This document shows positions 10,847-31,295 of a stretch of 64,000 nt of DNA, piece by piece. The DNA lies in assembly GCA_963826115.1 (NCBI GenBank), contig CAWGVS010000005.1:1056001-1120000 (forward strand), given 5' to 3'. The position numbers and the translations under genes were made by a program. How positions within the stretch are numbered: position 1 is the stretch's first letter; every line of letters starts with the position of its first letter. The notes under the pieces are model-generated. The model was not told the DNA's origin. It was given only the letters and a program-made list of their open reading frames with translations, and made no database searches. This DNA is from an uncultured Candidatus Rokubacteria bacterium (GTDB lineage: Bacteria > Methylomirabilota > Methylomirabilia > Rokubacteriales > DASRDR01).

Positions 10847-10884
10847 CCCCGGGCTATGCGTACCCGACGGCGAGACGACCACGC

Positions 10885-14218: not shown

Positions 14219-14370
14219 AATTGCTCCGGGTCAGCCTAGCACCATGACGACATCGTCAGGGCAGCCTGGGCGACCGCGGGCCGGGCCACGGCCGGGAGAC
14301 TGCTCACCAGAATGATTGCCGCGAAGGTGCGGAGGTCAGCATGCAGGGGTCTTCGAGAACCGTCGTCGAG

Positions 14371-14414
14371 GCCCCGCCCGCCGGGTAGAGGGTTACCTAC
14401 CGGCGGGCGGGGGC
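14371..14414. terminator. GC-rich hairpin downstream of the peptide ABC operon
   Basis: ccccgcccgccgg ... ccggcgggcgggg inverted repeat just past the SBP stop codon. Confidence 0.55.
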
Positions 14415-14419
14415 GGTCT

Positions 14420-16159
14420 TCAGCTCCGCTCGACCATGTAGAGGTGGGCCAGCATGTCGTTGTAGATGTTCCCCTCGATCACCTGCTCGCCCGCCTTGTT
14501 CTTCTCGATGCCCCGCACGGACGGCTTGGAGACCGCATAGCGCACGACCCAGGTGACCGGGACGTAGCCGCCGTCGCTCTGGAGGATCTCCTCGGCGCGG
14601 GCGTAGTTCTCGAGCCGCTTCTTCGTATCGCGCGTGTCACGGCCGGCCTCGAGCTCCTTGTCGAACGCCTCGTTCCCCCACGCCTGGCGCTTGCCCGTCG
14701 TCCGCTTCGAGTAGAACGTGTCGAAGTACTCGTTGTGGGGATCCGGGTAGTCCATGAACCAGCGGATCCAGACGAGCTGGAGATCCTGCTTCCAGAGCCG
14801 CTCCCGGAAGACGCGCTGCTCCAGCACCTCGAGCTCGGTCTTCATGTTGAGGTTTTCGAGAAGGATGGCCTGGACCGCCTCGGCCATGGGCTGGGACTGG
14901 AGCGCCTCCTGTCGCATCGACAGCACGATCTTCGGCCAGTTCTTCCCGCCCTCGTACGGCGTCCCCTTGAGCGCCGCCATCGCGAGCTTCGGGTCGAACC
15001 GCTGGACGTCGCGGATCTTCTTGTCCTCGAGATAGCCGGGAAAGCCCGGCGGAATCATGCAATGGGCGGGCAGCGCGAAGCCCTGGGCGACCTTGGCGAC
15101 GGACTCTCGATCCACCGCGTGCCCCAGCGCCTTCCGAACCTGCAAGTTGTCGAAGGGCGGCTTGGTGACCTGGGGGGTGAGGTACCACGTCCCCGGATAC
15201 GGGTAGCGGAACACCTCGCCGGCGGTCTTCGGATTGTCCCGGAAGCGCTTCAGGTCGGCGGCCTGAAGGATCGTGAGGTCGATCTCGTTGTTCTCGTAGG
15301 GCAGGACCCCGGCCGCGAACGGGATGATCGGGATGATCACCTTCTCGAGGGTGACCTCCTTGGCCCCGAAGAAGTGCGGGTTCTTCTTGAGGACCATGTG
15401 CTTGCCGTGCTCCCACGTCTCGAGGACGAACGGTCCGTTGGAGACGATGTTCCCCGGCTCGGTCCACTTGTCGCCGTGCTTCTCGATGGCGCCCTTATGA
15501 CCCGGGAACGCCGCCAGGTAGGCGGAGAGCACCGGGAAGTAGCCGCGCGGTCCCTCGAGCGTGACCTCGAGCGTCCAATCGTCCTTGGCCTTGACGCCGA
15601 CCTGCCCGGCATCGGTGACCTGCCCCTTGTTGAACGCCTCGCCGTTCTTGATGTCGTACAGGAACGCGGCGTAGGGTGCCTTCGTGGCCGGATCGAGCTG
15701 GCGCTTCCAGGAGTACTCGAAGTCGCGCGCGGTGCACGGGCTGTTGTCGGACCACTTGGAGTCCTTCCGGATCGAGAAGGTCCACATCGACCCGTCGCTG
15801 TTCGACGTGACCTTGCTCGCGACGGACGGCACCGCCTGGAAGTCCGCGTTGAACTTCATGAGCCCGGCCCAGAGGGACGAAACCCCGTTGCAGTACAGAT
15901 CCTTGTTGAAGTCGTGGCTCGAGGGATCCACCTGCGAGAACGCGAAACCGCCGCCTCCGTACCGGAACGTTTGCTCCTTGGCGAGCTTCTCGCCCGGCGC
16001 AAGCGTCGGTGCCGAGGACGCCGGCCTGGGATTGAAGCCGGCCGCCCCCATGGCGGCCAGCCCGGCGGCGATCCGGAGGAAACCGCGGCGATCGACGCCG
16101 GCGGCGCCCAGGCGCGCGGCCAGGAGATCCAGCTCTCGGTCGGGAACCGGTCGCCTCAT
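14420..16159 (-). CDS. peptide ABC transporter substrate-binding protein (OppA-like, Tat signal)
   Basis: DRRGFL twin-arginine motif, KWSD..TARDFEYSWKR, SNGPFVL, VRKALGHAVDR. Confidence 0.9.
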   Translation of the reverse strand: MRRPVPDRELDLLAARLGAAGVDRRGFLRIAAGLAAMGAAGFNPRPASSAPTLAPGEKLAKEQTFRYGGGGFAFSQVDPSSHDFNKDLYCNGVSSLWAGLMKFNADFQAVPSVASKVTSNSDGSMWTFSIRKDSKWSDNSPCTARDFEYSWKRQLDPATKAPYAAFLYDIKNGEAFNKGQVTDAGQVGVKAKDDWTLEVTLEGPRGYFPVLSAYLAAFPGHKGAIEKHGDKWTEPGNIVSNGPFVLETWEHGKHMVLKKNPHFFGAKEVTLEKVIIPIIPFAAGVLPYENNEIDLTILQAADLKRFRDNPKTAGEVFRYPYPGTWYLTPQVTKPPFDNLQVRKALGHAVDRESVAKVAQGFALPAHCMIPPGFPGYLEDKKIRDVQRFDPKLAMAALKGTPYEGGKNWPKIVLSMRQEALQSQPMAEAVQAILLENLNMKTELEVLEQRVFRERLWKQDLQLVWIRWFMDYPDPHNEYFDTFYSKRTTGKRQAWGNEAFDKELEAGRDTRDTKKRLENYARAEEILQSDGGYVPVTWVVRYAVSKPSVRGIEKNKAGEQVIEGNIYNDMLAHLYMVERS

Positions 16160-16316
16160 CAGGTGCCTCCTTTGTGGGAGCCAGCCCGCCTGGCACGCGC
16201 GGCGGGTGTCGGCTCGCGGTTATCCACGCCGAGGCCCGCGGCTCGCATGCCCGGGCCGGGCGGCGTCCCCCTGAACGTCCGGTTATCGGCGACCCGCCTC
16301 CCGCGAGGCGCCGCCG

Positions 16317-17249
16317 CTACTTCAGCTTGGGGTCCAGGGCGTCCCGGACCCCGTCACCCAGAAACGTGAACGACAGCATCGTGACGCCAATGGCGATGGA
16401 CGGGAACACGCAGAGGTGCCAGTACGTCCGGAGGTACTGCTGTCCCTCCCCCACCATCTGACCCCAGGACGGCGTCGGGGGATTGATACCCACGCCGATG
16501 AACGAAAGCGCGGCCTCCGTGAAGATCGCCTGGGGGATCCCGAACGTGATGGCGACGATGATCGGGGTGAGCGCGCTCGGAAGGATGTGACGCAGCAGCA
16601 CGCGACGGAACCCCCCGCCGAGGGCGCGGGCGCCCTCGACGAACTCCTTCTCCTTGATGGCAAGCACCTGGGCGCGCGTCTGCCGGGCGATGCCGACCCA
16701 CCCGGTGAGGCCGATCGCGATGAAGATGTTGACGAGGCCCGCGCCCAGCATGGACATGACGAGGATCACGAACAGCAGATTGGGAAAAGCGTACATGACG
16801 TCCACGAAGCGCATCAGCACGAGGTCCACGCGGCCCCCCAGGTAGCCGGACAGGGAGCCGATCGGCACGCCGATCAGCACGACGATCAGCTGGGCGCCCA
16901 ACCCGACCAGCATCGACACGCGAGCCCCATAGATGATCCGGGAGAGGAGGTCGCGTCCGACGTGATCGGTGCCGAGCGGGTAGTCGCGCGAGGGCCCTTC
17001 GTTCAGACGGGCGAAGTTCGTCTTCGTGTAGGGCAACGGGGCGAGGACGTCCGCCAGCAGCGCGACGAGGCACAAGATGAGGACGACGATTCCGCCCGCC
17101 ACCGCCAGCCGGTTGCGCAGGAGACGCCGGAAGGCGTCCCGCCAGAGGCTCGACGACTCGGCTCGCGCGAGGCCCGCGGCCCGCGCGGCGTCGAGGACCG
17201 CCCCGGTCCGAAGGCTACTGGTACCGGATGCGGGGGTCGAGAGTGCCAT
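16317..17249 (-). CDS. peptide ABC transporter permease (OppC/DppC-like)
   Basis: LGTDHVGRDLLSRIIYGARVS, EFVEGARALG, PPTPSWG. Confidence 0.9.
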   Translation of the reverse strand: MALSTPASGTSSLRTGAVLDAARAAGLARAESSSLWRDAFRRLLRNRLAVAGGIVVLILCLVALLADVLAPLPYTKTNFARLNEGPSRDYPLGTDHVGRDLLSRIIYGARVSMLVGLGAQLIVVLIGVPIGSLSGYLGGRVDLVLMRFVDVMYAFPNLLFVILVMSMLGAGLVNIFIAIGLTGWVGIARQTRAQVLAIKEKEFVEGARALGGGFRRVLLRHILPSALTPIIVAITFGIPQAIFTEAALSFIGVGINPPTPSWGQMVGEGQQYLRTYWHLCVFPSIAIGVTMLSFTFLGDGVRDALDPKLK

Positions 17250-18145
17250 AGACGAGGTCGACGACGAGGTTCATCGTCGCGAGGAACGCGCCGTACACGA
17301 GAACGACGGCCATGATCATGGGATAGTCGCGGCCGGTCATCGAGAGCACGAAGAACTGTCCCATGCCTGGCACCCGGAAGATGGCCTCCACGAAGAACGA
17401 GCCGGTGCCGACGGCGGCGAACAAGGGGCCCAGGAGCGTCACGATCGGGATCAGCGCGTTCTTCAGAGCGTGCTTGAAGATCACCGGCGGCTCAGCGAGC
17501 CCCTTCGCGCGCGCGGTGAGCGTGAAATCCGACCGGATGACCTCGAGCATGCTGGCGCGCGTGTACCGGGCGACCAGGCCCATGGGGGCCAGCGACAGAG
17601 TGAGTGGTCGGCAGGACCCAGTTGCGGGGTGAGTCCCACCCCCCGGTCGGGAAGAGCGGGATGACGAACGAGAACATCACGATGGCGAAGACGGCCAGGA
17701 CGAAGTTCGGCACGGCCACGCCGAACGTCGCGACGCAGACCGACACGTAGTCCCAGGCCCGGTTCTGGTGCATGGCGGCCAGGATGCCGAGCGCCAGTCC
17801 TCCGACGACAGCCAGGACGAAGGCCATCGTGCCCAGCCAGAGCGAAACGGGGAACGTCTGGGCGATGATCTCGCTGACCGTTCGGGTCTTGTAGACAAAC
17901 GACTGGCCGAAGTCCCCTCGGGCGGCCTTGCCGACGAAGATGAGGAACTGCTGGTAGAGCGGCCGGTCGAGGCCGTAGGCCTTGGCGAGGTTTTTCTGGG
18001 CCTCGGGAGGCAGAGGATTTGCGCCTTCTGCCACGGGATCGAGCGGACTTCCTGGCGTCGCATGCATCACCAGGAAGGTCACGAGCGCCATGGCCAGGAG
18101 CGTCGGGGCCAGCCACAGGACGCGAGACGCCGCGTATTGGAGCAC
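17215..18145 (-). CDS. peptide ABC transporter permease (OppB/DppB-like); +1 frameshift near 17605
   Basis: YGLDRPLYQQF, GDFGQS; removing one base gives WVLPTLTLSLAPMGLVARYTRASM...TARAKGL...RDYPMI. Confidence 0.85.
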
Positions 18146-18303
18146 CCGAATCCCCCCAGGGGTGCCCTACTATCGGGTGCGGTCCGGAGGGAGTCAAGAG
18201 GTCCGTCGCGTCGGCCACGGCCCCGGAGGTCCTCGACAGTCACGTGGCGCGCGCCTGGCGCGTCGGCGGGCGCCGTGGTAGGAGTGTCGCGAGAGGGATC
18301 TCG

Positions 18304-19125
18304 GTGAACGTCACGCTTCTCGGAACCGGATGCCCGCCGCCGAATCCGGCCCGTCGTGGCCCCGCGACCCTCGTTCGCGCCGGCGCGGAGACGCTCCTCG
18401 TGGATGCCGGATCCGGGGTGGCCGTGCAGCTGCTCCGCGCCGGGGTCCGGGCGAGCCAGCTCCAGCGTGTCCTGCTCACCCATTTGCACTCCGACCACGT
18501 CATCGACCTCGGCCATCTCGTGCTGACCCGCTGGATCGTCGGCGAGAACACGCCGCTCGAGGTGTTCGGCCCGGCCGGCACGGCCGCCCACGTGGAGCGG
18601 CTCCTCGCTCTCTGGGCCTGGGACGTCGAGGTCCGGCGCTCGCACATGCGCGAGCGCGAGCCGCCCCGCGTGCGCGTGACGGAGATCGAGGAGGGCCTGG
18701 TGTTCGAGCGGGACGGCGTGCGCGTCACCGCGTTCCTCGTGGAGCACGAGCCCGTGAAACCCGCGTTCGGGTTTCGCTTCGACGCGCCCGGCCGCCGCGT
18801 CGTGATCTCGGGGGACACGCGGCCCTCGGAGAACCTGATCCGGCACGCGCAGCAGGCGGACCTCCTGATCCACGAGTGCACCGACATGACCTTCGCGGCG
18901 TGGACGCCCGGGTGCGGCTGGCCGACGCGAGAGGCGAAGGTGCGCGACCTGCAGGCCTATCACACGGGACCGGACGAGGTCGGCGCGGTTGCAGCCGAGG
19001 CTCGCGCGCGCCATCTGGTGCTCACGCACCTGATGCCGGGCTCCGAGCCCGGTGACCTGATCGATCGAGCCCGCGCGCGCTTCGCCGGTCCGATCACGGT
19101 CGGCGAGGACCTCGCCGCGCTGTAG
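18304..19125 (+). CDS. MBL-fold metallo-hydrolase (RNase Z/BN-like)
   Basis: LLGTGCP, THLHSDH, SGDT, LLIHEC, YHT, LVLTH. Confidence 0.88.
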   Translation: MNVTLLGTGCPPPNPARRGPATLVRAGAETLLVDAGSGVAVQLLRAGVRASQLQRVLLTHLHSDHVIDLGHLVLTRWIVGENTPLEVFGPAGTAAHVERLLALWAWDVEVRRSHMREREPPRVRVTEIEEGLVFERDGVRVTAFLVEHEPVKPAFGFRFDAPGRRVVISGDTRPSENLIRHAQQADLLIHECTDMTFAAWTPGCGWPTREAKVRDLQAYHTGPDEVGAVAAEARARHLVLTHLMPGSEPGDLIDRARARFAGPITVGEDLAAL

Positions 19126-19539
19126 GCGCGGAGGGCCTACGCCGAGCGCTCGCGGTTACGGCGCCTCCGGCCCCTCAGATGTCACGGCCAGCGCTTTGGG
19201 CCCCCCGCGCGCCCGGCCTCCGCCTCCTCGACAAAGACCCGCGCGTCCGCACGTAGGCCGTCCCAGCCACGTTTCTGTATCCCCTCCCCCGTCCCCCGCT
19301 CGCGGGCGCGCGGCATCGGCCGCGCACCCGAACAACAGCGCGGCGCAGCCGCGTCGGAGGGCGAGGGGGTCAGGACGTGAGGCCCGGAACCCGACCGACA
19401 GGTCCCGCGTGCAGAGTGCGTTCGATGAGCTAGGAGGCCGCCTAGCGTCCGACCCGTGCTTCCTGGTAGGGTCAGGCTGGCGTTCCCCTCGGAATGGCAG
19501 CCGCGTCCCACTGGCCTCAGTCGACGGAAGGATTCATCG

Positions 19540-20529
19540 ATGCTCGCCCGGCTCATGGCCGCGACCATCCTCGCCCTGGCCCTCCTCGCCGCGCCGCTCG
19601 CCGTTGCGGCACAGCCGGCGGGGAAAGGCCACCGGATCGGCTTTCTGGGCGTGGGCTCGCGCGAGGGCCGGGCGTTCTTGATTGACGGCTTTCTCCAGGG
19701 GCTGCGCGAGCACGGCTACGTCGAGGGCCGAAACATCTTCATCGAGTACCGCTTCTCCGAGGACCGCAACGATCGGCTGCCCGCGCTCGCGGCGGAACTG
19801 GTCGATCAGAAGGTGGAGCTCATCCTGGCGTCCGGTACCCCGGCGAGCTTTGCGGCCAGGCAGGCCACCCGTACGATTCCGATCGTCATGGGAAGCCTGG
19901 CCGCCAATCCGGTCGAGACCGGCCTCATCGTCAGCCTGGCGCGGCCCGGTGGCAACATCACCGGGATGACGCAGATGGCCGCGCAGCTCGGCGGGAAGCG
20001 GCTGGAGCTGCTCAAGGAGACCGTGCCGGGTCTGTCGCGCGTGGCTGTCTTCTGGAATCCCGACAACCCCGCCTACGGGCCCATCCTGAAAGAGCTCGAG
20101 GCGGCGGCCCCCGTGCTGGGGGTGGAGCTTCGCCGCGTGGAGGTGCGAGTTCCCGAGGATTTCGAGGCCGCCTTTCAGGGCGCGACCAGGCAGCGTGCCG
20201 GGGCGCTGATCGTCCCCAGCGACCCCCTGGTCACCAACCGGCCCCGCACGGTCGCGGACCTGGCGCTCAGATATCGACTGCCAACGATGTTCGAGAACAA
20301 GGAGTTCACGGAAGTCGGGGGCCTCCTGTCTCTCGGGGTTGACCTCGTCGACTCGTACCGGCGCGCCGCGAGCCATGTGGACAAGATCCTGAAGGGGGCC
20401 AAGCCCGGCGACCTGCCGATGGAGCAGCCCACGAAGTTCGACCTGTTCGTCAACCTGAAGACAGCCAAGGCCCTCGGCCTCACGATCCCGCCGTCGGTGC
20501 TCGCGCGGGCGGACGAGATACTTAAGTGA
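19540..20529 (+). CDS. ABC_sub_bind-type substrate-binding protein (orphan, copy 1)
   Basis: GYVEGRNI, SLARPGGNITG, KRLELLKE, DLPMEQPTKFDL, LGLTIPPSVLARADEI. Confidence 0.88.
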   Translation: MLARLMAATILALALLAAPLAVAAQPAGKGHRIGFLGVGSREGRAFLIDGFLQGLREHGYVEGRNIFIEYRFSEDRNDRLPALAAELVDQKVELILASGTPASFAARQATRTIPIVMGSLAANPVETGLIVSLARPGGNITGMTQMAAQLGGKRLELLKETVPGLSRVAVFWNPDNPAYGPILKELEAAAPVLGVELRRVEVRVPEDFEAAFQGATRQRAGALIVPSDPLVTNRPRTVADLALRYRLPTMFENKEFTEVGGLLSLGVDLVDSYRRAASHVDKILKGAKPGDLPMEQPTKFDLFVNLKTAKALGLTIPPSVLARADEILK

Positions 20530-21509
20530 TGGACCGGCGAGCCTTCGTTGCTGGCACCCTGACCCTCCTCGCCGCGCCGCTCGCCACGGAGGCGCAGCCG
20601 GCGGGTAAGGTCTTCCGGATCGGCGTGCTCAGCCCGGGCTTGGCCCAAGGCTCGTTGGTCGAGATGGCGGCCCTCCGGACCGGGCTCGGCGAGGTCGGGT
20701 ACGTCGAGGGCCAGAACATCCGCATCGACTGGCAATTTGCCGAGGGCAGCCCTCAGCGGCTGAACGAGCTCGCGGCCGAGCTCGTCCGTCTCAAGCCTGA
20801 CGTGATCTTCACGATCAACACCCCCGCCGCGGCGGCCGCCAAGAGCGCGACCAGCACGATGCCCATCGTCTTCGTGAGAGTCAGCGATCCCATCGGGGCG
20901 GGGCTGGTCCCGAGCCTGGCGCGGCCGGGAGGGAACGTGACGGGCCTGGCTTCGTTCGTGGCCGAGATGGGCCCGAAACGCCTGGAGCTTCTCAAGCAGG
21001 CCATTCCGCGCCTCTCCCGGGTCGCTGTGCTCTGGAATGCTCCGAGCAAGGGCGCGCAGCTGGTATTCACGGAGCTCAAGGCGGCGGGTCCCCGCCTCGG
21101 CGTGCAGATCCAAGACGCGGGCGTGCGAGACCCGAATGAGCTGGCGGGCGTCTTCGGCGCCGCGGCCGAGGCACGGGCCAGTGCCCTGGTCGTGATCGAT
21201 GACCTGGTGATCGATTCATACCGGACCGAGATCCTGGCCCTGGCCGCGAAGCACCGGCTCGGGGTGGCCTCCATATATCGGGAGTACACGAACGCGGGGG
21301 GTCTCATGGCCTACGGTCCCAGCCTGTCGGATACGTATCGGCGCGCCGCGACCTACGTCGACAGGATTCTCCGCGGCGCCAGGCCGGCCGATCTTCCAGT
21401 CCAGCAACCCGCAAAGTTTGACTTCGTGATCAACCTCAAGACCGCCAAGACCCTCGGCCTGACGATCCCGCCCTCACTGCTCGCGCGGGCGGATGAGGTC
21501 ATTCAGTGA
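20529..21509 (+). CDS. ABC_sub_bind-type substrate-binding protein (orphan, copy 2)
   Basis: MDRRAFV start overlapping the upstream stop; same family motifs; ends IPPSLLARADEVIQ. Confidence 0.88.
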   Translation: MDRRAFVAGTLTLLAAPLATEAQPAGKVFRIGVLSPGLAQGSLVEMAALRTGLGEVGYVEGQNIRIDWQFAEGSPQRLNELAAELVRLKPDVIFTINTPAAAAAKSATSTMPIVFVRVSDPIGAGLVPSLARPGGNVTGLASFVAEMGPKRLELLKQAIPRLSRVAVLWNAPSKGAQLVFTELKAAGPRLGVQIQDAGVRDPNELAGVFGAAAEARASALVVIDDLVIDSYRTEILALAAKHRLGVASIYREYTNAGGLMAYGPSLSDTYRRAATYVDRILRGARPADLPVQQPAKFDFVINLKTAKTLGLTIPPSLLARADEVIQ

Positions 21510-21578
21510 CCAGCAGGGCGCGCTTCTTGCTGGGGCGATCCCATCGCAGCCAGTCTCGCCTGAGTAAGGCATTGTCTC

Positions 21579-22481
21579 GTGGAGCCTGATCGGGCGAGCT
21601 GGACCGCGAGATTGGCCGCCTACGCGCGCGCATATCACTACGCCCACGACTCACGCCGGGTATTCGAGGACTTCCTGGCGGGCGCGCTCATCACGCGAGA
21701 AGACCGGGAGACCATGGACACACAGTGGGCACCCGCGGCGGCCGACTCTCAGCCGAGACGGCCGGGCGGCGCCCACATGCTCGGCAGAGCGCGCTACAAC
21801 GAGGACAAACTCTTCGGCGCGATCGACAAAGGCATCTCACAGTACGTCATCGTCGGCGCTGGCATGGACACCTTCGCGCTACGGCGGCCCGACCTCCAGG
21901 AGCGTCTCCGGATCTTCGAGCTCGATCACCCCGCGACGCAGGCGTTGAAGCGGGACCGGCTGTCTCAGGCCGCCCTGGCTCTACCACCCCACCTCCACTT
22001 CTGCCCGACTGATTTCGAGCGCGAGAGCGTCGGATCCTCACTGTCCCGATCGCCATTCGACCCCGGGGTTCCGACGTTCTTCTCATGGCTGGGCGTCACG
22101 TACTACCTGACGCGCGAGGCGATTCGCAACACGCTCACGTCGATCTCGACCGTGGCAGCGCCGAACAGTGAACTCGTCATGGACTACGCGGATGCGGCCG
22201 CGCTTCTTCCAGACAATCAGTCTCCCCAGATCCGGGACCTCTTCTTGCGACTCCAGAGCGTGGGCGAGCCCCTGATATCCGGTTTCCACCCGTGCACACT
22301 GACTGAAGAGCTCGCAGCGCTCGGGTTCGACCTCTTGGAGGATTTGGACGCCAAGGTGCAAGAAGCACGCTACTTTGCGGGTCGAGTCGATGGGTTCCGT
22401 CCGGTTGAGTTCGCTCACTTGGCGCATGCACGTCGGATCCCGCCTCCGATGCTGGCGCGGGCGGATGAGGTGATCCAGTAG
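21579..22481 (+). CDS. SAM-dependent methyltransferase (LCM/TIGR00027-like) with binding-protein-derived C-terminal tail
   Basis: QYVIVGAGMDTFA, IFELDHPATQ, FSWLGVTYYL; ends IPPPMLARADEVIQ. Confidence 0.85.
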   Translation: MEPDRASWTARLAAYARAYHYAHDSRRVFEDFLAGALITREDRETMDTQWAPAAADSQPRRPGGAHMLGRARYNEDKLFGAIDKGISQYVIVGAGMDTFALRRPDLQERLRIFELDHPATQALKRDRLSQAALALPPHLHFCPTDFERESVGSSLSRSPFDPGVPTFFSWLGVTYYLTREAIRNTLTSISTVAAPNSELVMDYADAAALLPDNQSPQIRDLFLRLQSVGEPLISGFHPCTLTEELAALGFDLLEDLDAKVQEARYFAGRVDGFRPVEFAHLAHARRIPPPMLARADEVIQ

Positions 22482-23474
22482 GTGGACCGGCGCGCCTTCC
22501 TCGCCGGCTCCCTGGGCGCCCTCGCCGCGCCGGTCGCCGCGGGGGCGCAGCAGGCAGACCGCATTTGGCGGGTCGGCCTCCTCATTCCGTTCGCCGAGAG
22601 CGACGCGGAAGCGCAGACCCAGGTTGCAGCGTTCCTGGGGGCCCTGCGGACACTTGGTTGGGACGAAGGTCGAAATGTGCGCATCGATTATCGTTGGGCT
22701 GCGCGGGATACCACTCGTATTCGGGCATCTGCGAAGGAGCTGGTGGAGCTTCGGCCCGACGTGATTCTCGCCCGCACCACCCCAGTGACCGCCGCACTCC
22801 AAAGAGAGACCAGCACCATCCCGATAGTCTTCGTTGTCGTCTCTGATCCCGTTGGCGACGGCCTCGTCGCGACTGTCGCGCGTCCTGGTGGCAACATCAC
22901 GGGATTCACCAATGTGGATGCTTCGCTAGGCGGCAAATGGCTGCAGTTGCTCAAGGAGATCGCACCTCGCATCAAGAAGATCGCGTTCCTTTTCGATCCC
23001 AGGATGGCCCCCGGTGGGGGAGTGTATTACCGTCGTCTGATCGAGGACGCTGCTCCATCCATCGGGGTACAGGCGATCGAGACCGCGGTGCATGACGCCG
23101 CGGATATCAAGCGCGCCATCGAGGGGTTCGTGCGGGAACCGAACGGTGGTCTTGTTGTGCTACCCGATGTGACGACCATTAATCACCGCAGGACGACGAT
23201 TTCGCTGGCGGCCAACCATCGCCTGCCGGCCATCTATCCGACCGACTACTTCACGAAGGATGGCGGTCTAATATCCTACGGAGCCGACTATCTGGACTTG
23301 TATAGAAAGTCAGCGTCATATGTGGATCGCATCCTTCGCGGTGCGAAGCCGATTGACCTTCCAGTGCAGGGACCGATCAAGTTCCAGTTAACCGTCAACC
23401 TGAAGACCGCCAAAGCGCTCGGCCTCACGATCCCGCCCGCGGTGCTCGCACGGGCAGATGAAGTGATTCAGTGA
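22482..23474 (+). CDS. ABC_sub_bind-type substrate-binding protein (orphan, copy 3)
   Basis: MDRRAFLAG; ARPGGNITGF; ends IPPAVLARADEVIQ. Confidence 0.88.
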   Translation: MDRRAFLAGSLGALAAPVAAGAQQADRIWRVGLLIPFAESDAEAQTQVAAFLGALRTLGWDEGRNVRIDYRWAARDTTRIRASAKELVELRPDVILARTTPVTAALQRETSTIPIVFVVVSDPVGDGLVATVARPGGNITGFTNVDASLGGKWLQLLKEIAPRIKKIAFLFDPRMAPGGGVYYRRLIEDAAPSIGVQAIETAVHDAADIKRAIEGFVREPNGGLVVLPDVTTINHRRTTISLAANHRLPAIYPTDYFTKDGGLISYGADYLDLYRKSASYVDRILRGAKPIDLPVQGPIKFQLTVNLKTAKALGLTIPPAVLARADEVIQ

Positions 23475-23564
23475 CGCGCCCACGCACGCGACCGGAAAGG
23501 GCCGGCAGCGCCCCTTGACGCCCCCGCCCCGACCCCAAGGGGGGGGCGGCCTCTCCTGGGTGTC

Positions 23565-23798
23565 CTGACTGCAGCCGGCGTCCGCTACCGGGAGCCCGAG
23601 CGACTCCGGCACACGTTCGCCAGCACGATGCTGTCGCGTAATGCCCCGCTGCTCTACGTGCAGAAGCAGGGTGGCTGGCGAAGCGCGGCCGTGCTCCTGC
23701 GCGTCTACAGCCGCTGGCTCCCCCCGGATATCGACGGGGGGTCGATGCAACCGTCCGCAACCCCCGCGCAACCGGCCGTGGTCGCGCCGCGGAAGTAG
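23565..23798 (+). pseudogene. tyrosine integrase C-terminal remnant
   Basis: Manual translation LTAAGVRYREPERLRHTFASTMLSRNAPLLYVQKQGGWRSAAVLLRVYSRW...* contains the LRH box, GW and the catalytic Tyr; no N-terminal part. Confidence 0.75.
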
Positions 23799-23805
23799 CG
23801 GGAAT

Positions 23806-23842
23806 CTATGACCCGCCGAGCAGCGGGCGAAACTTCCAGAAG
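23806..23842 (-). repeat. left attachment site: displaced copy of the 3' end of gene 29877..31295
   Basis: Encodes FWKFRPLLGGS*; 23811-23842 matches 29879-29910 at 28/32 nt, with an identical 12-bp core AACTTCCAGAAG. Confidence 0.8.
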
Positions 23843-24059
23843 CACTTGGCCCCCACGCGCGTGCTCGAAAATCCGGCACGTTACAAGACAGCGGCCCGAA
23901 ATCTATCCCCTGGCAACATAACCACACGCGGCCTCGACCTGCGTACGTCACGACTTGCGCGACACCACCGTGAGCTCCCATTAACGCCGGGTCAGCTGGA
24001 CGCATTCCAGCGGCCCGGCGACAGGTCTCCCAGTACCACCGTGCTATCCTAGCGACACA

Positions 24060-24293
24060 ATGACCTCATCAGCTGAACACACCAATCTGCCTGAAGTGAT
24101 CTTCCTCGTCGAGGAAGCCCCCGAGGGCGGTTTCACCGCACGGGCCCTGGGAGAATCAATCTTCACCGAGGCCAACGACATGGAAGACCTCCATGCGAAG
24201 GTCCGAGACGCGGTTCACTGTCACTTCGACGAGGGCAAGACTCCGAAGGTCATCCGGCTCCATTTCGTCCGTGAGGAAGTCATCAAGGCTTGA
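24060..24293 (+). CDS. HicB-like antitoxin (short, no DNA-binding domain)
   Basis: EVIFLVEEAPEGGFTARALGESIFTEA...VRDAVHCHF; stop overlaps the hicA start. Confidence 0.75.
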   Translation: MTSSAEHTNLPEVIFLVEEAPEGGFTARALGESIFTEANDMEDLHAKVRDAVHCHFDEGKTPKVIRLHFVREEVIKA

Positions 24294-24535
24294 GGCTGCC
24301 GCGGGACGTCTCTGGGGAGGATCTCGCGAAGGCACTCGGTGATCTCGGCTACCGGATCACTCGCCAATCCGGTAGCCATCTCAGACTGACCACGCTCGAA
24401 CGCGGCGAGCACCACGTCACCATCCCTCGCCACGCTGCGCTCCGGGTTGGGACACTGTCCGGTCTCCTCGGCGACGTGGCCCAGCATTTCGCCCTGAGCC
24501 GAGAGGAGCTGATCGAGCGGTTGTTTGGGCGATAG
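24290..24535 (+). CDS. hicA: HicA family toxin
   Basis: LPRDVSGEDLAKAL..LGYRITRQSGSHLRL...VTIPRH..LRVGTL; TTG start. Confidence 0.85.
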   Translation: MRLPRDVSGEDLAKALGDLGYRITRQSGSHLRLTTLERGEHHVTIPRHAALRVGTLSGLLGDVAQHFALSREELIERLFGR

Positions 24536-24580
24536 ACGACCAGGAGCGAGGTCGGCTGAAGTCCCGACACTGCGCATTCG

Positions 24581-27500
24581 TCAGCCACGCTCCGTCAGCG
24601 CCGCCTCCGCCTGCGCCAGCCAGAAGCCCATCTCCATCTCTCGATACATATTCGTGGCCGCGGTCAGGTGCTCGTGGGCCTTCGGACGATCACCGGTGCG
24701 GCGATAGAGTTTGCCGAGGCCGAGGTGGCAGTGGGCGACGAGGGGGCGCATGCCGCGCGGCTCGGCGAGCTCCAGCGCCCGGCGGTAGTGGGCCTCGCCG
24801 CTGTCGGCGTCCAACCGGTCGGGATGGGTCGCGATGTCGCCGAGCAGGTGCCGCGCGTCAGCCGCGAACCCGTGCTGCCCCGGAGAGGATTCGACCGCGC
24901 GGTCGGCCAGGCGCTGCGCTTCGTCGAGCCGGCCGAGCAGCAGACCGGCGCGACCCAGCGAGTGGTAGTCCCAACTGCGATAGGCGATGAACCCCCTTGC
25001 CGCCTGACGTTCGAGAAGCCGCTCGCCCTCCCGGAGCCGGTCCAGCGCCTCACTCGCTTCGCCAAGCTGCGCCAATGCCCAGGCGGAGGAGGCGACCGCG
25101 GTGGGAAGCTGAAAGACGACGTTTCGCGGCCGCACCACCGCAATCCACTGCTCGATCAGTGTCCGCGCGTTCGGCCAGTCGCCCTTGAGGAGGCGAAGCG
25201 TGCCCGCGGCGAGGTGGGCCCAGCCGACGGTGTGCGCGTGCTGTGTCGGCTCGGCAAGCCGGATCGCGTCGGCTTCATACGTGGCCGCCTCGATGAACCG
25301 GCCAAGTTGGGCGAGGCTCATGGCCAGGTAGGAGCGGTCGAGGACCGATGGCGGGACGGCCAGGCCGAAATACTCGGAGGCCAAGTCGGCCGGCAGCGCC
25401 GCGAGGTTGCCCGTCGCCAGCTCGACCACTCGCTCGTACTCGCCCCGGTAGTAATGCCCTTCAACGAGACAGCTCGTGGCGAGAATTCGGAGCCTCACAT
25501 CCCCGAGACGCCCGGCGATCGCCAGCGCGCGAGTGCCGGTCACGAGCGCGTCGTCCAATTCGCCGAGATCGTTCAGGGCCATCGTCACGAACGCGCCGGC
25601 GCGGCCTCGCCGGCGGTCATCGTTCAACCGTTCGGCGAGGGCCTCGGCTTCGCGCAAGCGGTCCCGCACTCGCTGGACTTCACCGAGTTGGTTCAGCACT
25701 GGCCGCAGTTCGAGGCGGATCTCGAAGCTCTGCTCCAGCATGGACGGGCTCTCCGGCAGCGCCTCGAGGACCCCCAGCGCCTGCTCGAACCAGACCCGAG
25801 CATCCGAGAGCGCCGATCGCGCGGCCGCCTTGAGCCCGGCCTGCCGGGTATAGTCCACCGCCTTCTCCCGCAACTCACCCCGGACCGCGTGATGAGCGAG
25901 CCGCTCGATCTCTGCGCCAAGGCGGTCTTGGTGGAGCGTCTCGATTGCTTCGACGATCCGCGCGTGCAGCTCGCGGCGCCGCTCCTGCAGCAAGCCGCCG
26001 TACGCGACCTCGTGCGTGAGCGCGTGCCGGAACGTGTACTCGAGATCCGGGAACAGCCGCGTCTCGTAGAGGAATTCGGTCGCCTGAAGCTGGGCGAGCC
26101 CCTGGCGGAGACGGTCCTCGGGCTCGTCGGCCACAGCCTGGAGCAGCGAGAAGGGAACGTCGGTGCCGATCACCGCGGCCGCCTGCAGCAGTCGTTTGTC
26201 CTCCGGGTCCAGTCGGTCGATCCGGGCCGCCAGCATCGCCTGGGCCGTGGCCGGGACCCGGAGGCCTTGGACGATCCGGGTCACGCGATATGCTCCACGC
26301 TCCCCCGCCAGGACTCCCGTCTCGACCAGCGATCGAACGCTCTCCTCCACGAAGAACGGGTTGCCCTCGGTCCGCTCGATCACGAGCCGCTTGAGCGGGG
26401 CGAGCGCGGTGTCGTTCCCGAGCAGGGCGTCGAGCAAGGCCTCGGCGCTCTCGGGCGCCAGGGGATTGATCTGGAGCTGCCGGTAGTAGGTCTTGCTCCC
26501 CCAGCCGTGGCGGTACTCCGGGCGGTAGTTTACGAGGAGGAGCAGCCTGGCCGTGGGCAGGCTCTCCACCAGGCTGTCCAAGAAGGCCTGAGTCTCGGCG
26601 TCGATCCAGTGCAAGTCCTCGAACAGGACCACGAGCGGCTGCACCTGGCTCTCGCGCAGGAGCAGACGCTTGACGCCGTCAAGGATACGCTGGCGGCGCT
26701 GGGGCGGATCGAGGCGTGCCCAGTGCTCGTCCTCGATCGGGACGTCAAGCAGCCACAGAATCGGGAAGACGCAGGGCTCAAGCTGCCGGTCGAGAGAGAG
26801 GAGCCTGCCCGTCACCTTCTCGCCGATCTTGCGGGCATCGTCGGTGCTCTCGATCTGGAAGTACGCTCGGAGCAGCTCGATGAGGGGCAGGTAGTTCGTC
26901 GCCTTGCCGTAGGAGACGGAGCCGGACTCGAGGATCAGCCAGCCCTCGGCGCGATCGGAGTGACTGAACTCCCAAAAGAGCCGGGACTTCCCGACACCGG
27001 GCTCCCCCACGAGGGCCACCACCTGTCCGTGACCGGCTCGCGCGCGCTCGAGCGCCTGGCGGAGCTGATCCAGCTCGCTCTCTCGGCCCACGAATTGGGC
27101 CAGGCCGCGGACGGCCGCGGCCTGGAAGCGCGAGCGGACCGTGGCGGCCCGGGTCAGTTCGTAGACCTCGAGCAACATCTCCAGCCCCTTGACCCGCACC
27201 GGGCCGAGCGATTTGACCTCGACGTAGCCTTCGGCCAGCGCCAGCGTCTCGGGCGTGATCACGATCGCGCCGGGGTCGGCGAGCTGCTCCATCCGCGCGG
27301 CCAGGTGCGTCGTCTGGCCGACGGCGGTGTAGTCCATACGGAGATCGCTGCCTATGGCGCGGACGACGACCTCGCCTGAGTTCAGCCCGACGCGGATCTT
27401 GACGACGGCCGCATGAGAGCGCCGCACCTCGTCCGCGTACGTCTTCACGCGCTCCTGCATCCTGAGTGCCGCGTAGCATGCCCGCACCGCATGGTCCTCG

Positions 27501-27949
27501 TGGGCCAGCGGCGCACCGAACAGCGCCATGATCCCGTCGCCCATCACCTGGTTGACGGTGCCCTCGTAGCGGTGGACGGCCTCCATCATCCGCTCGAGCA
27601 CGGGATCCAGGAGCTTCCGTGCCTCCTCGGGGTCGCGGTCGGCGAGCAATTCCATCGAGCCCTTTAGATCGCCGAAGAGCACCGTCACCTGCTTCCGCTC
27701 GCCTTCGAGGGCACTCTTCGAGGTGAGGATCTTCTCGGCGAGGTGCTTCGGGGTGTAGGCCCCTGGTGAGCTGAAACGTGGCTGCGTCGAGGCCAGCTCG
27801 GCCAGCGGATGGGCGCACTCGGAGCAGAACTTCGCGGTCGGGGACGCCTGGGCGCCGCAATTCGCGCAGGTTCGGGCGAGAGGAGCGGCACATTCCTCGC
27901 AGAACTTCGCCTGCGGGCGATTCTCATGCTGGCACCGGGAGCATTTCAT
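24581..27949 (-). CDS. double zinc ribbon + class III nucleotidyl cyclase + AAA_16 (STAND) + TPR protein
   Basis: MKCSRCQHEN..CEEC..CANC..CSEC; FGDLKGS, MGDGIM, THLAARM; GEPGVGKS; FEDLHWID; GNPFF; TPR-like C-terminus. Confidence 0.9.
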   Translation of the reverse strand: MKCSRCQHENRPQAKFCEECAAPLARTCANCGAQASPTAKFCSECAHPLAELASTQPRFSSPGAYTPKHLAEKILTSKSALEGERKQVTVLFGDLKGSMELLADRDPEEARKLLDPVLERMMEAVHRYEGTVNQVMGDGIMALFGAPLAHEDHAVRACYAALRMQERVKTYADEVRRSHAAVVKIRVGLNSGEVVVRAIGSDLRMDYTAVGQTTHLAARMEQLADPGAIVITPETLALAEGYVEVKSLGPVRVKGLEMLLEVYELTRAATVRSRFQAAAVRGLAQFVGRESELDQLRQALERARAGHGQVVALVGEPGVGKSRLFWEFSHSDRAEGWLILESGSVSYGKATNYLPLIELLRAYFQIESTDDARKIGEKVTGRLLSLDRQLEPCVFPILWLLDVPIEDEHWARLDPPQRRQRILDGVKRLLLRESQVQPLVVLFEDLHWIDAETQAFLDSLVESLPTARLLLLVNYRPEYRHGWGSKTYYRQLQINPLAPESAEALLDALLGNDTALAPLKRLVIERTEGNPFFVEESVRSLVETGVLAGERGAYRVTRIVQGLRVPATAQAMLAARIDRLDPEDKRLLQAAAVIGTDVPFSLLQAVADEPEDRLRQGLAQLQATEFLYETRLFPDLEYTFRHALTHEVAYGGLLQERRRELHARIVEAIETLHQDRLGAEIERLAHHAVRGELREKAVDYTRQAGLKAAARSALSDARVWFEQALGVLEALPESPSMLEQSFEIRLELRPVLNQLGEVQRVRDRLREAEALAERLNDDRRRGRAGAFVTMALNDLGELDDALVTGTRALAIAGRLGDVRLRILATSCLVEGHYYRGEYERVVELATGNLAALPADLASEYFGLAVPPSVLDRSYLAMSLAQLGRFIEAATYEADAIRLAEPTQHAHTVGWAHLAAGTLRLLKGDWPNARTLIEQWIAVVRPRNVVFQLPTAVASSAWALAQLGEASEALDRLREGERLLERQAARGFIAYRSWDYHSLGRAGLLLGRLDEAQRLADRAVESSPGQHGFAADARHLLGDIATHPDRLDADSGEAHYRRALELAEPRGMRPLVAHCHLGLGKLYRRTGDRPKAHEHLTAATNMYREMEMGFWLAQAEAALTERG

Positions 27950-28930
27950 GGGCCGGAGCTCCTCGACCGGGCAGCACTGCAAGCAGCAGAAGGCGGGGCT
28001 CCCGCTCCTTGCGGCAGGAGCTGATGACTGGAGCCAGAGAAGAACGCGGGAAGTCTGCAGCGCAAGATTAAGGAAGAGGGCCGTGTGCGAGCTAAGTCCC
28101 CGAATCCAGAAACGACCGAACGGCCCTCGCATGCATTCGTTGCCCAGTGCCTATCCAAGCCTGAGGGCCGTCGGAGGGCTGTAGTCGAAGAAGACGCCCC
28201 CGCACATCTCCTATGGCCAGGCGCCCAAACCTGTTGGCGGTCTCGACGGGCCAGGGGCAGTATCCGCGCGCATCGGATTCGACCAGGGTCTGCAGTGGCT
28301 ACGATGTTTCGGCGGGCCGACGGCAGAAGTATGGCCAGTCCGGAAGGTGGAACCTCGGCGAAAGAGACTTGATGCGACGCACGGCAAGATAAAGGCCGGG
28401 GCCTGATCCGCCTCAAGTCCGCGAATCTATGCACCATCGGAAGGCCCCGAAGCCGTTCGAGGGCGCGCCCTGTTTCGAGTGTCGGGGCCGCTCGGGGGCC
28501 GCGCTCACGGCCTAGAATCGCGTGGCGCCGAATGGCTCCATCGGCCTCGCTCGTGTGCTGCGACCTCCGCACTGCCCACACCATCGAGCCATAGCCGACC
28601 CTGTCGGCACAGGCTCTTGGCCGATGTCGCGAGAGGGTCTCGCCGAACCGCTTCACTTTGCGTCGCACCGCTGCACCTTGCCGCAGTCCGGCACCCCACC
28701 GAGGATCGTATCGACGGCGCGCTCCCCTCGCCAATCGCCGACTTGGCGCGAGGTTCGGGCACTCGCGACCGCCAAACCCACAACCTAGCATGCCTATTGG
28801 TAGCACGACCCGTACCGATATGAGTTCCGACCTGATCGCGTCCCCGGTGCCCCAGATCTCCCTTGCCTCGCGGCGGCGGCTTCGCTACCGTGCGAGGCAG
28901 CGTGGGGCTGGGCCGCGTCGGGGACATCCC

Positions 28931-29848
28931 ATGACGCTTGGACTCCCGGTCCTGTGGAGGAGGTACCTGTCCGAGTTGCGAATCGACCGAGCCGTGGCGG
29001 ACAGGACGCGCCGTGCCTACGAGACGGGCTGGAACTCCTTCGTGGCCACCTCGCGGTCGATGGGCTGGCGTCTCCGGGACGCCGGCGACATCAGCTACGA
29101 GCGGCTCCTGGAGTGGCAGCTCACCCTGAAGGAGGTGGGGAAGCAGGACTGGACCTGCCGGACGTACCTCATGGCCCTCAAGGGCTTCACCCGGTGGCTC
29201 AATACCAACGGGCACCTCGTCACCGACCCGGGCGCCCGGTTCCGCACCCCTCGGCTCAAGCGCACGATTCCGATCCTCCCTGCGTTCCACGACCTCGCCA
29301 CCCAGCTCGCCAGCGAACCGAGCCTCCGGAACCGCGCCATCCTCGCGATCGCGCTTTACGGGGGCCTTCGTGCCGCCGAGATCGCGGGGCTCCGTCGCGC
29401 CCACTTCGTGCCGGACCAGGGGCTCATCGGGTTCGTGGGCAAAGGCCAACGTCAGCGCTCGGTGGCACTTCCGCCCCAGGCGCTCGAGATCATCCAGATG
29501 TACCTGGCCACCAGCACAACGATCCATAACGGCGCCAATCGGAACGGCCACACCGTCCCTGCCGACTCGCCGCTCCTCCGCAAGGAGGACGGGAGCGGCG
29601 CCGGGCTCAGCTACCTCGTCATCAACCGCGTCATGACCCGCTGGACGCGGCGGCATCTCGGCGTCCGCCTCACCCCGCACAAGCTCCGCCACGCCTACGG
29701 CAAGCACTGCGTCGACCGCGGCGTCGACATCCGGATCATCGCCGAGGCGCTCGGTCACGAGTCGCTCGAATCGACCAAGATCTACACCCAGGTGTCCTTC
29801 GAGCGCACCCGCCGCATCGCCGAGTTATTTGCCCTCCCGGGGAGCTAA
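28931..29848 (+). CDS. tyrosine recombinase/integrase (XerC/D-like)
   Basis: YGGLRAAEI, GKG, TPHKLRHAYG, LGHESLESTKIYT; all catalytic residues present. Confidence 0.9.
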   Translation: MTLGLPVLWRRYLSELRIDRAVADRTRRAYETGWNSFVATSRSMGWRLRDAGDISYERLLEWQLTLKEVGKQDWTCRTYLMALKGFTRWLNTNGHLVTDPGARFRTPRLKRTIPILPAFHDLATQLASEPSLRNRAILAIALYGGLRAAEIAGLRRAHFVPDQGLIGFVGKGQRQRSVALPPQALEIIQMYLATSTTIHNGANRNGHTVPADSPLLRKEDGSGAGLSYLVINRVMTRWTRRHLGVRLTPHKLRHAYGKHCVDRGVDIRIIAEALGHESLESTKIYTQVSFERTRRIAELFALPGS

Positions 29849-29876
29849 ATAACCCGGTGCGAAATCGTCAACGAAA

Positions 29877-31295
29877 TCACCCGCCTAGCAAAGGGCGGAA
29901 CTTCCAGAAGTAGTTCGCGAGGCCGCCGCCCTCGTGGAAGCGGCGGAACGTGAGCTCGACCGGGACGTCGAACGTCACCGAGTCGGGGTCGGCGTCCGTC
30001 AGCTGGGTGTAGAAGCGGCCCCCGCCCTCGAGGTCCGCGGCCACCATGACCGTCGGCGGATCGGGCGACGGCACCAGGTGATCCTTGGTGAACGTGAAGA
30101 CGCGGCCGCGCCGGGAGAGCCGGTGCTCCACGAGCTCCTTGCCGGAGCAGCGCCAGCACACGCGCCGGCGGGGATACTGGATGGCCCCGCACGCCACGCA
30201 GCGCTGGCCGTAGAGGCGGAGGTCCTGGCGCTCCTCGCGCTCCATCACCGGGAGGCTCGTGAACGCCCGGATGGGATCGGTCTCGACCAACCGGCGGAAC
30301 TGGAGATACTTCCCGTAGTGCCGGAGCGGCCGCCCGGCGGCCACCTGGGCGGCGACGCCGCGGCTCCGGTCGAGGCGACGAACGGCGTCCGTCGCCTCGA
30401 AGAGGAGCGCGTCGGCGCCGGCGCCGTAGCCCACCACGAGGATCCGGTCGCCCGGCTCCGCCTCCTCGAGACACGCGGCGAGCGCCAGGATCGCCGCCGC
30501 CACGCCGGTGTTCCCGACGCGCGAGAGGAGCGAAACCCTCGGGAGCGCATCCTCGCCCAGGCCGATGCTGCGCAGGATCGGTCCGGCCAGGCGCGGGTCC
30601 GGCGCGTACACGGCCGCGCGGCGGATCTCGCGCGCCCCCACCCCGGTGTCGGCGAACAGGCGCCGCGCCGCCTCCGCCATCTGCCGCTCGTAGCCGTAGG
30701 CACGGACGAACGTGGGATCGCCCTGCTCGGGGAAGCGCGCGCCGGCAAGCCGCCAGACGTCGGAAAACTCGTGAGTGTGGGCGGCCGCGCCAACGAACCG
30801 CGCGAGTACGCCCGGCCCGGTCCCGAGCCGCACCGCAGCGGCCGCATCCCCCCAGACCGTCTCGAGCTCGCTGCCGGGGGGCGCCAGACGCATGTCGGCC
30901 GCGGCAACCATTGCCTCGCGCGCCGAGCCCGCGCGGACCGCGTCGAGGCCCAGCCGGAGTCCGGTCGTGCCGGCGCGGAGACTGCCCCCCAGGTCGGCGA
31001 CGGCGACGGAGGGCCCGCAGTCGAGCACGCTGGCGAGCACGGCGGCCGCCGATTTCTCCGCGTAGGGCGACGTCGTGCTGGCGAGCGCGACGAAGTCGAG
31101 GTGAGCGGCGCCCGCGGGCCCGAGCGCGGCGAGGCCCGCTTCCACGGCCATCGTGAGGCTGTCCTCGTCGTGGTTCGCGACCGCCCGCTCGCCCTGGCCC
31201 GGCCCGCCCCAGGCGCCGCCGAGGGTCTCGCCCGACAGCCGGTACCGCGGAACGTGCACCCCGATCCCGGTGATGCCGATCGGCGGGGCGCTCAC
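29877..31295 (-). CDS. HMG-CoA synthase-like thiolase-fold protein fused to a DUF35 zinc ribbon/OB-fold
   Basis: GVHVPRYRL, DEDSLTMAVEA, VGNTG, GYGAGADA; C-terminal RCVACGAIQYPRRRVCWRC...VELTFRR...YFWK. Confidence 0.85.
   Translation of the reverse strand: MSAPPIGITGIGVHVPRYRLSGETLGGAWGGPGQGERAVANHDEDSLTMAVEAGLAALGPAGAAHLDFVALASTTSPYAEKSAAAVLASVLDCGPSVAVADLGGSLRAGTTGLRLGLDAVRAGSAREAMVAAADMRLAPPGSELETVWGDAAAAVRLGTGPGVLARFVGAAAHTHEFSDVWRLAGARFPEQGDPTFVRAYGYERQMAEAARRLFADTGVGAREIRRAAVYAPDPRLAGPILRSIGLGEDALPRVSLLSRVGNTGVAAAILALAACLEEAEPGDRILVVGYGAGADALLFEATDAVRRLDRSRGVAAQVAAGRPLRHYGKYLQFRRLVETDPIRAFTSLPVMEREERQDLRLYGQRCVACGAIQYPRRRVCWRCSGKELVEHRLSRRGRVFTFTKDHLVPSPDPPTVMVAADLEGGGRFYTQLTDADPDSVTFDVPVELTFRRFHEGGGLANYFWKFRPLLGG

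Follow-up and report, generated by a model that had tools for sequence, protein, structure and literature searches.

The locus described here raises a simple question: why does the end of one protein-coding gene occur twice, 6 kb apart, with an intact recombinase gene adjacent to one of the copies? It lies in a stretch of 64,000 nucleotides of contig CAWGVS010000005.1 from an uncultured Candidatus Rokubacteria bacterium; the whole stretch is called the window below, and the genome is designated G000. Comparison with related genomes and metagenomes suggests that a 6,068-bp island would have been inserted in the last codons of a thiolase-like/DUF35 gene by site-specific recombination, the catalyst being the Xer-like tyrosine recombinase (type 1) that the island encodes. 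The attachment (att) site of the island, attP, would have brought a stand-in for the final eight codons, leaving the C-terminus nearly identical (GG-stop versus GGS-stop), and the previous gene end would have been stranded 6 kb away. It seems that the same gene end had earlier been used by another integrase lineage, the island now standing at the inner edge of a composite region of about 19.4 kb. Insertion by site-specific recombination is regarded as secure; the whole account, comprising the island, its own integrase, a gene-end-restoring attP and a reused site, is given a probability of roughly 0.8. The target gene, the junctions and the integrase are the following.

29877-31295, minus strand: target gene, thiolase-fold (HMG-CoA-synthase-like) domain fused to DUF35 (zinc ribbon and OB fold), 472 aa (Pfam)
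29899-29910, strand not applicable: attL core, 12 bp identical to 23831-23842 (repeat search, aligned junctions)
29877-29898, minus strand: replacement gene end brought by the element (..F R P L L G G stop) and marked by a CTAGG signature (sequence, aligned junctions)
28790-29848, plus strand: type-1 integrase, Xer-like tyrosine recombinase (Pfam); start uncertain (28790, about 28820, or 28931)
23843-24059, strand not applicable: distal (attP) arm of the element, with conserved ...GCCCCCACGCGCG... beside the core (junction comparisons)
23831-23842, strand not applicable: attR core, 12 bp (repeat search)
23806-23830, minus strand: earlier gene end, now displaced (..F R P L L G G S stop) (sequence; in G008 the gene retains the homologous end)
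Unoccupied or pre-insertion ends, gene strand: left of core ...GCGAACTAC; core TTCTGGAAGTT; right TCGCCCGCTGCTCGG... (aligned junctions)
attP-type arms, gene strand: left of core ...GGCCAAGTGC; core TTCTGGAAGTT; right CCGCCCTTTGCTAGG... (aligned junctions)

The minus-strand target gene ends in ...GLANYFWKFRPLLGG and a stop codon (YFWKFRPLLGG), and the reverse complement of 23806-23841 reads FWKFRPLLGGS before a stop codon. This recurrence of the last codons had been noticed in an earlier reading of the letters alone (the sequence-only reading) and was confirmed by direct reading and by a script. The 12-bp core that the two copies were said to share, AACTTCCAGAAG, was found, at up to one mismatch, at two places only in the window, 23831-23842 and 29899-29910, and none of 100 dinucleotide-preserving shuffles contained two matches. 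The repeat around the core comprises 43 nt with 81% identity, its copies standing 6068 bp apart. No direct repeat within 23300-30400 is longer, and it is the sole such match in the whole genome (6.24 Mb in 12 contigs; E 2.5e-4). The element is flanked by these direct repeats as attL and attR, one of them inside the target gene.

Beyond the core the copies differ in four codons (right/left: TTC/TTT, CCT/CCG, TTG/CTG, CTA/CTC), all synonymous on a codon-by-codon check, as had been claimed, and then diverge at their ends, with TGA in the right copy versus TCA TAG in the left. The claim of AT-richer codons in the copy that now finishes the gene holds for three of the four changes, TTC/TTT running the opposite way. 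Likewise, the small palindrome in which the core was said to lie (ACTTC-CA-GAAGT, 5+2+5) is whole in the right copy only, the left one ending in ...GAAGC; given its overlap with the conserved codons Y-F-W-K-F, it is a putative recombinase feature only.

The product of the target gene matches the Pfam families ACP_syn_III_C, zf-ChsH2 and OB_ChsH2_C, its matches to the NCBIfam HMG-CoA synthase models lying below their cut-offs. The gene is present in a single copy (one tblastn match in its own genome), and orthologs were found in 29 of the 41 related genomes searched.

The integrase encoded next to the right copy matches PF00589 (Phage_integrase) with 79.8 bits against a cut-off of 27.1 (E 2.6e-22), and Phage_int_SAM_1 as well. 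Its open reading frame (ORF) is intact and ends at 29848, 28 nt from the stop codon of the target gene, in agreement with the earlier description of an intact Xer-like recombinase at this position. Tyrosine recombinases share the catalytic set R...K...HxxR...H/W...Y, in which each residue has its role. In the alignment with XerA (4a8e) and XerD (1a0p) the RHR/H/Y motifs of the type-1 protein are in place (GLRAAE, KGQRQR, HKLRH, LGH and KIYT against XerA 4a8e). The scores of the NCBIfam Xer models all remain below the cut-offs (XerC, 150.5 against 335; XerD, 130.7 against 330; XerA, 116.2 against 220), and "Xer-like" is to be read as a resemblance only; these scores, the encoding of the enzyme by the element beside an att site and its rarity among relatives indicate that it is not the host dimer resolvase. 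Between homologs, dN/dS (the ratio of non-synonymous to synonymous divergence) is 0.15-0.25 in five pairwise comparisons.

The 69 nt preceding the ATG at 28931 are 80-98% conserved across all homologous loci and code for an arginine-rich stretch that is present too in the ORF of the L066 homolog (L numbers denote loci, G numbers genomes). This places the true start of the integrase probably near 28790-28820. The arginine-rich N-terminal extension (...LASRRRLRYRARQRGAGPRRG.P; 28862-28930 in the window, and in homologous loci) precedes the SAM-like domain and might act as an extra DNA-binding tail.

Family scans recognised a core-binding (SAM-like) and a catalytic domain in the integrase, and no arm-binding domain. 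A hand count from the aligned sequences gave about 6 matches in 9 positions left of the core and 11 in 15 on the right between attP and the target, the right flank of attP being also in frame with the target and carrying synonymous changes only. A simple recombinase that depends on two similar half-sites would call for such likeness to the left and to the right of the core. A two-domain recombinase lacking an arm-binding domain, together with an attP resembling attB (the unoccupied target site) on both sides, points to a simple, dif/lox-like site of about 30 bp. Strand exchange would be placed in or beside the core CTTCTGGAAGTT, which codes for F-W-K-F, extending at most to the next common CGCCC.

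The junctions recur in relatives. The replacement end bearing CTAGG is also found in G011, G015, G016, G020 and G019:C20; CTAGG is common to all type-1 junctions seen in this genome family, and gene ends away from a type-1 integrase carry CTCGG. The distal arm has its parallels in a stretch 92% identical across the G014 junction and in a homologous arm at an attP-like junction in G019:C20.

The unoccupied state, which the sequence-only reading had proposed to look for in relatives, is represented by G002, G005 and G018, where the target gene is present and its contig contains no PF00589 match. In G002, synteny with the window begins 1.2 kb past the gene end (at 10483-9682) and runs onward to 868, bridging the site. 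Approximately 10500-29898 (19.4 kb) is therefore extra in the present genome relative to G002. G003 rejoins the same synteny after about 1 kb and G008 after about 10.5 kb, which indicates a hypervariable spot. The attB sequence of relatives is likely to correspond to the site as it was in this strain before insertion.

In G008 nothing separates the gene from a homolog of the left copy with a remnant of a second, type-2 integrase (71% over 199 bp); this arrangement is the state expected before type-1 insertion. The same locus (G008:C48, L039) has two cores TTCTGGAAGTT, at 1457 and 2798 in gene orientation and thus 1.34 kb apart, and a similar stretch of about 35 nt (...TTCGAATCCCGG...) comes after each. 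Between the cores lie the type-2 remnant and an alpha/beta-hydrolase-like ORF, named from its sequence rather than by family search, and the whole resembles a small type-2 element in decay that keeps both junctions. In G014 the target gene is truncated and a group of recombinase genes has intruded, yet a 98-bp stretch 92% identical to window 23788-23885 persists; it takes in the left copy together with the element arm on one side and the start of the type-2 remnant on the other. Between the truncated gene and this distal junction (L043, G014:C10, 14715-17407) there are three consecutive tyrosine-recombinase-like ORFs and a methyltransferase, an arrangement presumably of the "recombinase in trio" kind; its position indicates that a different mobile element invaded the same hot spot.

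The reciprocal form, with the element ends joined by one core, was also observed. G019:C20 carries, one after another, a cyclase fragment, hicA, hicB, att, the type-1 integrase (with stops) and cyclase genes. The left end of the element aligns there up to the core (window 24372-23816) and the right end from the core (window 29910-29001), the two alignments overlapping by 27 nt around a single core. In G019 hicB lies 219 nt from the core, and in G000 218 nt. This junction is preceded by a further gene-end copy and an integrase stub, forming a degenerate tandem array away from the gene. A contig of 592 nt from the public run X1, which may be the source sample of the window itself, covers 29602-29910, continues with CACTTTGCC and passes into about 23843-23850 (cacttggcc in the window). 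A false join over 12 identical bases seems unlikely for contigs built from 31-letter words. The circular junction predicted earlier (integrase end, core, cacttggcc) was thus encountered with small differences in X1 and as a natural junction in G019:C20. The 1.5-kb locus L079, where the integrase, replacement end and core are followed by ...GCAGCCCCCACGCAG, resembling the G000 arm ...GGCCCCCACGCGCG, is probably another attP form, judging by its letters. The letters past the core in both L079 and the X1 contig resemble the distal arm. A circle and a tandem array are both possible sources of the attP form.

The sequence-only reading had also proposed that homologs of the recombinase be checked for a place beside the same gene. 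In the order-wide search, type-1 homologs at E<=1e-40 were found in 6 of 183 genomes. Four (G000, G011, G015 and G079) have the integrase converging on the target gene; G079 belongs to a different family, and its target gene is 59% identical. The integrases of G117 and G019:C20 adjoin a gene-end fragment without the gene. The metagenome scan yielded 30 loci, seven of them on contigs ending inside the integrase. Among the 23 informative loci, with the integrase 3' end and downstream DNA, the convergent gene stands just past the integrase in 15, a gene-end fragment only in five (L079, L085-88) and neither in three (L080, L081, L083). Several loci are near-duplicates (L073-75, L077-78, L080-81, L085-88), and L054 and L069 may come from the population of G015, so that independent cases are fewer than these counts. 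The proposal was borne out in four of six genomes and 15 of 23 metagenome loci, most of the others adjoining a gene-end fragment. This indicates an integrase lineage tied to the same target in independent genomes.

Seen from the side of the gene, the DNA of 16 ortholog loci has type-1 integrase sequence directly downstream of the gene in five (G011, G003, G015, G020, G016) and a type-2 remnant in three (G017, G019:C19, G008), with G023 as a possible fourth; three are the contigs of G002, G005 and G018 that lack a PF00589 match, and four loci were left unclassified. By tblastn, the type-1 sequence comprises residues 18-305 in G015 and a 73-aa remnant in G003; G016 has a stub. The contigs of G011 and G020 end at type-1 sequence, that of G020 stopping 61 nt past the stop codon. 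A separate arrangement was noticed in the metagenome contig L087 (2006-2350 and 8172-8402), where 5.8 kb separate an internally deleted type-1 integrase with a gene-end fragment from the real gene end, past which the sequence is a different one; the site is here again occupied in tandem or composite fashion.

On the far side of the element the left copy does not adjoin ordinary host DNA. Two further features extend leftwards from it.

23562-23798, plus strand: C-terminal remnant, 78 aa, of an unrelated tyrosine integrase (type 2) (Pfam, just under the cut-off)
10500-23561, strand not applicable: older part of the variable region (synteny, ORFs, GC content; not at this position in G002)

The type-2 remnant corresponds to positions 122-166 of the 172 of the PF00589 profile (E 7.7e-6, slightly below the cut-off), stands 8 bases left of the left copy and is cut off by an ABC substrate-binding gene ending at 23474. 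It is a relic of an earlier occupant of the same site, and since it abuts the left copy, that copy is itself the junction of an older element. Homologous remnants adjoin the gene in G008, G019:C19 and G017. Fuller type-2 homologs (open frames of 100-442 aa) converge on the target gene in 4 of 28 loci examined (G154, G173, G103, G162), a count from which L117 was left out, and the other 24 lie elsewhere; the 78-aa query is short and unspecific, with matches in 54 of 183 genomes, G038, G045 and G176 included, on which no conclusion depends. The use of the same gene end by a second integrase lineage marks the site as a reused hot spot.

The older part of the region contains a split second cyclase-AAA-TPR gene, genes for a peptide ABC transporter, an MBL-fold gene, three ABC substrate-binding genes and a methyltransferase. 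The second zinc-ribbon/cyclase/AAA/TPR gene, at the far edge (10885-14218, minus strand), is present as two ORFs, 12890-14218 and 10885-12870, and is probably frameshifted. A methyltransferase-like ORF (21579-22481, plus strand) ends in ...MLARADEVIQ, a tail common to the ABC substrate-binding genes 19456-20529, 20526-21509 and 22482-23474. The conserved 3' ends of these genes, about 45 nt, also match G014, and the common tails suggest recombination between shared 3' ends.

Within the element, the remaining features are the cargo and a spacer.

24060-24293, plus strand: putative HicB-like/DUF1902 antitoxin, 77 aa (language-model lead only)
24290-24535, plus strand: HicA-family toxin, 81 aa (Pfam HicA_toxin)
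24581-27949, minus strand: double zinc ribbon, class III nucleotide cyclase, AAA_16 ATPase and TPR protein, 1122 aa (Pfam, NCBIfam, PADLOC)
27950-28789, strand not applicable: spacer without a supported gene (comparison, Rfam)

The toxin matches PF07927 with 37.5 bits against a cut-off of 27 (E 2.5e-9), and an 89% identical copy is present in the G019:C20 array. The preceding 77-aa ORF overlaps hicA by 4 nt and has an 82% identical copy beside hicA in G019:C20. It matched no Pfam or NCBIfam family, and the sole lead to HicB is a feature-similarity score of 0.90 to DUF1902/HicB clusters obtained with a language model. A stabilising effect on the island is the probable role of the HicA/HicB-like pair. 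Paralogs of the cyclase gene are numerous in its own genome (31 tblastn segments), the element itself being single copy. Assignment of its product to Pycsar or another known defence system was rejected: the cyclase domain alone (residues ~74-236 of 1122) matches PycC models, and no effector partner was seen in the PADLOC scan. In the spacer no gene was recognised and Rfam gave two sub-threshold matches only; a segment of about 160 nt (28340-28501) has a 70% match to L054, and nothing else there is conserved. In GC content the element (67.2%) stands below both the genome (71.9%) and the target gene (74.9%). Cargo varies among type-1 islands, consisting here of the HicA pair and the cyclase gene, in G019:C20 of hicBA and cyclase genes, and in L054 of type I restriction-modification genes, named from their translations rather than by family search. 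Elsewhere in the same genome (G000:C12:629422-634079) a cyclase-AAA-TPR paralog (75% at the nucleotide level) has, about 1 kb away, a weak type-2-like integrase match (42% identity); islands of an integrase with a cyclase gene may recur in this genome.

Taken together, the earlier view of the two copies as the attL/attR pair of a minimal element is supported by the relatives and the attP junctions, neither of the outcomes named as refuting it having been obtained, with three amendments: the left copy abuts a type-2 integrase remnant and not simply host DNA; the 6.07-kb element is the innermost part of a composite variable region of about 19.4 kb; and the "unusual" target with its recoded end introduces no new principle. 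Indeed, PMC10111431 describes attP sites that carry a replacement gene end and keep the gene functional, for icd and tRNA genes.

How far the evidence allows other explanations depends largely on whether the island still moves. Several observations weigh against a mobile island of the kind proposed. No excisionase, replication or transfer gene was recognised in the element, and no second core copy was found in L054 and L061-L078 at up to 1-3 mismatches; many relatives of the element look immobilised. The empty-site joint (23842 to 29899) was not found among the 15 joints listed from runs X1-X4, with 58 more beyond the listing; these runs are stored as contigs, a form that allows no judgement of starts, ends and rare forms, and none of them contained half of the query words. 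The X1 junction contig differs from the window in 9 of 309 letters, other X1 pieces in none, so it belongs to an element variant and not necessarily to this strain; the junction could also derive from a tandem array, as in G019:C20, rather than from a circle. The divergence of the integrase roughly parallels that of host genes, which fits horizontal and vertical spread alike, and the G014 junction is 92% identical with the integrase gone, so that the insertion may predate species splits and have been partly vertically inherited. Two integrase loci, L061 and L067, share just 1.2 kb of sequence before the integrase and have the look of 2.2-kb relics made up of the integrase only. Their homology boundary, 1.2 kb upstream of the integrase, contains a GCAGGCCCCCGCA stretch like the core-side arm of G000 and L079, a suggestive likeness only.

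One rival view is that the insertion is real but now a fixed relic, which entered an ancestor of several species of this genus, has been inherited vertically without excision and keeps its integrase by chance or for another role. Type-1 remnants or junctions at the same gene in the congeners G003, G011 and G014, the higher identity of the G014 distal junction (92%, versus 86% for the adjacent gene), which fits common descent, and the frameshifted or truncated integrases of L073-75, L077-78, L085-88, G117 and G019:C20 agree with it, as does the missing empty-site joint. However, the integrase ORF of the window is intact, has its catalytic motifs and is under purifying selection; its synonymous divergence (dS) between G000 and the L054 homolog amounts to 0.38 and that of the neighbouring host gene to more (0.575); a public run contains the attP-form junction of an element with 97% identity; and cargo differs between genomes. 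A fixed relic is accordingly considered unlikely as the full explanation, and the odds that this particular copy can move today would be about even. A larger mobile unit, either the whole block of about 19.4 kb (10500-29898) or the 6-kb element with the type-2 region, might be suspected from the lack of the whole block at this position in G002, the low GC content of the block (66.4%, versus 71.9% for the genome) and the tandem or composite arrays at the site in G019:C20, L087 and G008. Yet near 10500, the far end of the region, no att-like core copy was found at up to 3 mismatches, the type-2 integrase is reduced to 78 aa, and both junctions are present for the 6,068-bp unit, whose ends are joined in G019:C20 and X1; a larger unit is very improbable. 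The idea of a chance match or a local duplication of the gene end, unrelated to the recombinase, could appeal to the conserved residues coded by the core and to the shortness of the exact identity (12 bp), but it has to contend with the shuffles, the recurrence of the same junctions with the same integrase in other genera and the element ends joined by one core elsewhere, and its probability is negligible. Insertion of a discrete island at the gene end by its own integrase, at a site used before, is therefore preferred here.

A wider reading, put forward tentatively and at somewhat less than even odds, is that soil Methylomirabilota/Rokubacteria harbour a lineage of very small islands (about 2 to >6 kb) defined by the type-1 enzyme. 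To move, these would require only a Xer-like recombinase of two domains and a simple site of about 30 bp copied from coding sequence. Their interchangeable cargo would be a toxin-antitoxin pair, a cyclase-ATPase-TPR gene or type I restriction-modification, and the attP-borne end would track the C-terminus of the host lineage (…FRPLLGG/FRPVLGG in one family, …FRPA in another). With the second integrase lineage, the gene end would be the phylum's counterpart of a tRNA-gene hot spot.

Among the matches listed, the literature search found no account of this target gene or of Rokubacteria integrative elements; an ordinary kind of element with a previously undescribed target is a well-supported description. 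The understanding of integration into genes is unchanged. The locus provides a cleanly bounded mobile element with its integrase and att pair, and an insertion hot spot, in an uncultured soil phylum, including a replacement gene end of just eight codons kept synonymous. A compact integrase with a short defined site in a conserved gene is a possible marker for islands in these genomes and, if active, a possible genetic tool for a group without any.

The lambdoid phage 21 and the element e14 integrate into the E. coli gene icd. The present element resembles them in the use of a tyrosine integrase and the 3' part of a protein-coding gene, with a replacement end and a displaced end at the far junction. 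It differs in that the replaced segment is very short (8 codons with a 12-bp identity block) instead of long, no phage genes are present, the integrase is a two-domain Xer-like enzyme, and the target gene and the phylum are other ones. XerC, XerD and XerA are the closest relatives of the integrase in sequence and structure and have the same domain layout, and a simple core site, like theirs, seems likely here; unlike them, the type-1 enzyme scores far below the equivalog cut-offs, is element-encoded beside att and occurs in 6 of 183 genomes only. The dusA islands (PMC4482086) likewise have one integrase lineage tied to one site in a conserved protein-coding gene in many genomes, with variable cargo, but they occupy the 5' end and the present element the 3' end, and their integrases presumably form an unrelated family. 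Islands in tRNA and tmRNA genes offer a further parallel, with a 3' end restored by attP, tandem arrays, several integrases at one hot spot and decaying remnants; here, unlike there, the target is protein-coding and the stand-in end is constrained by its codons, all four differences being synonymous.

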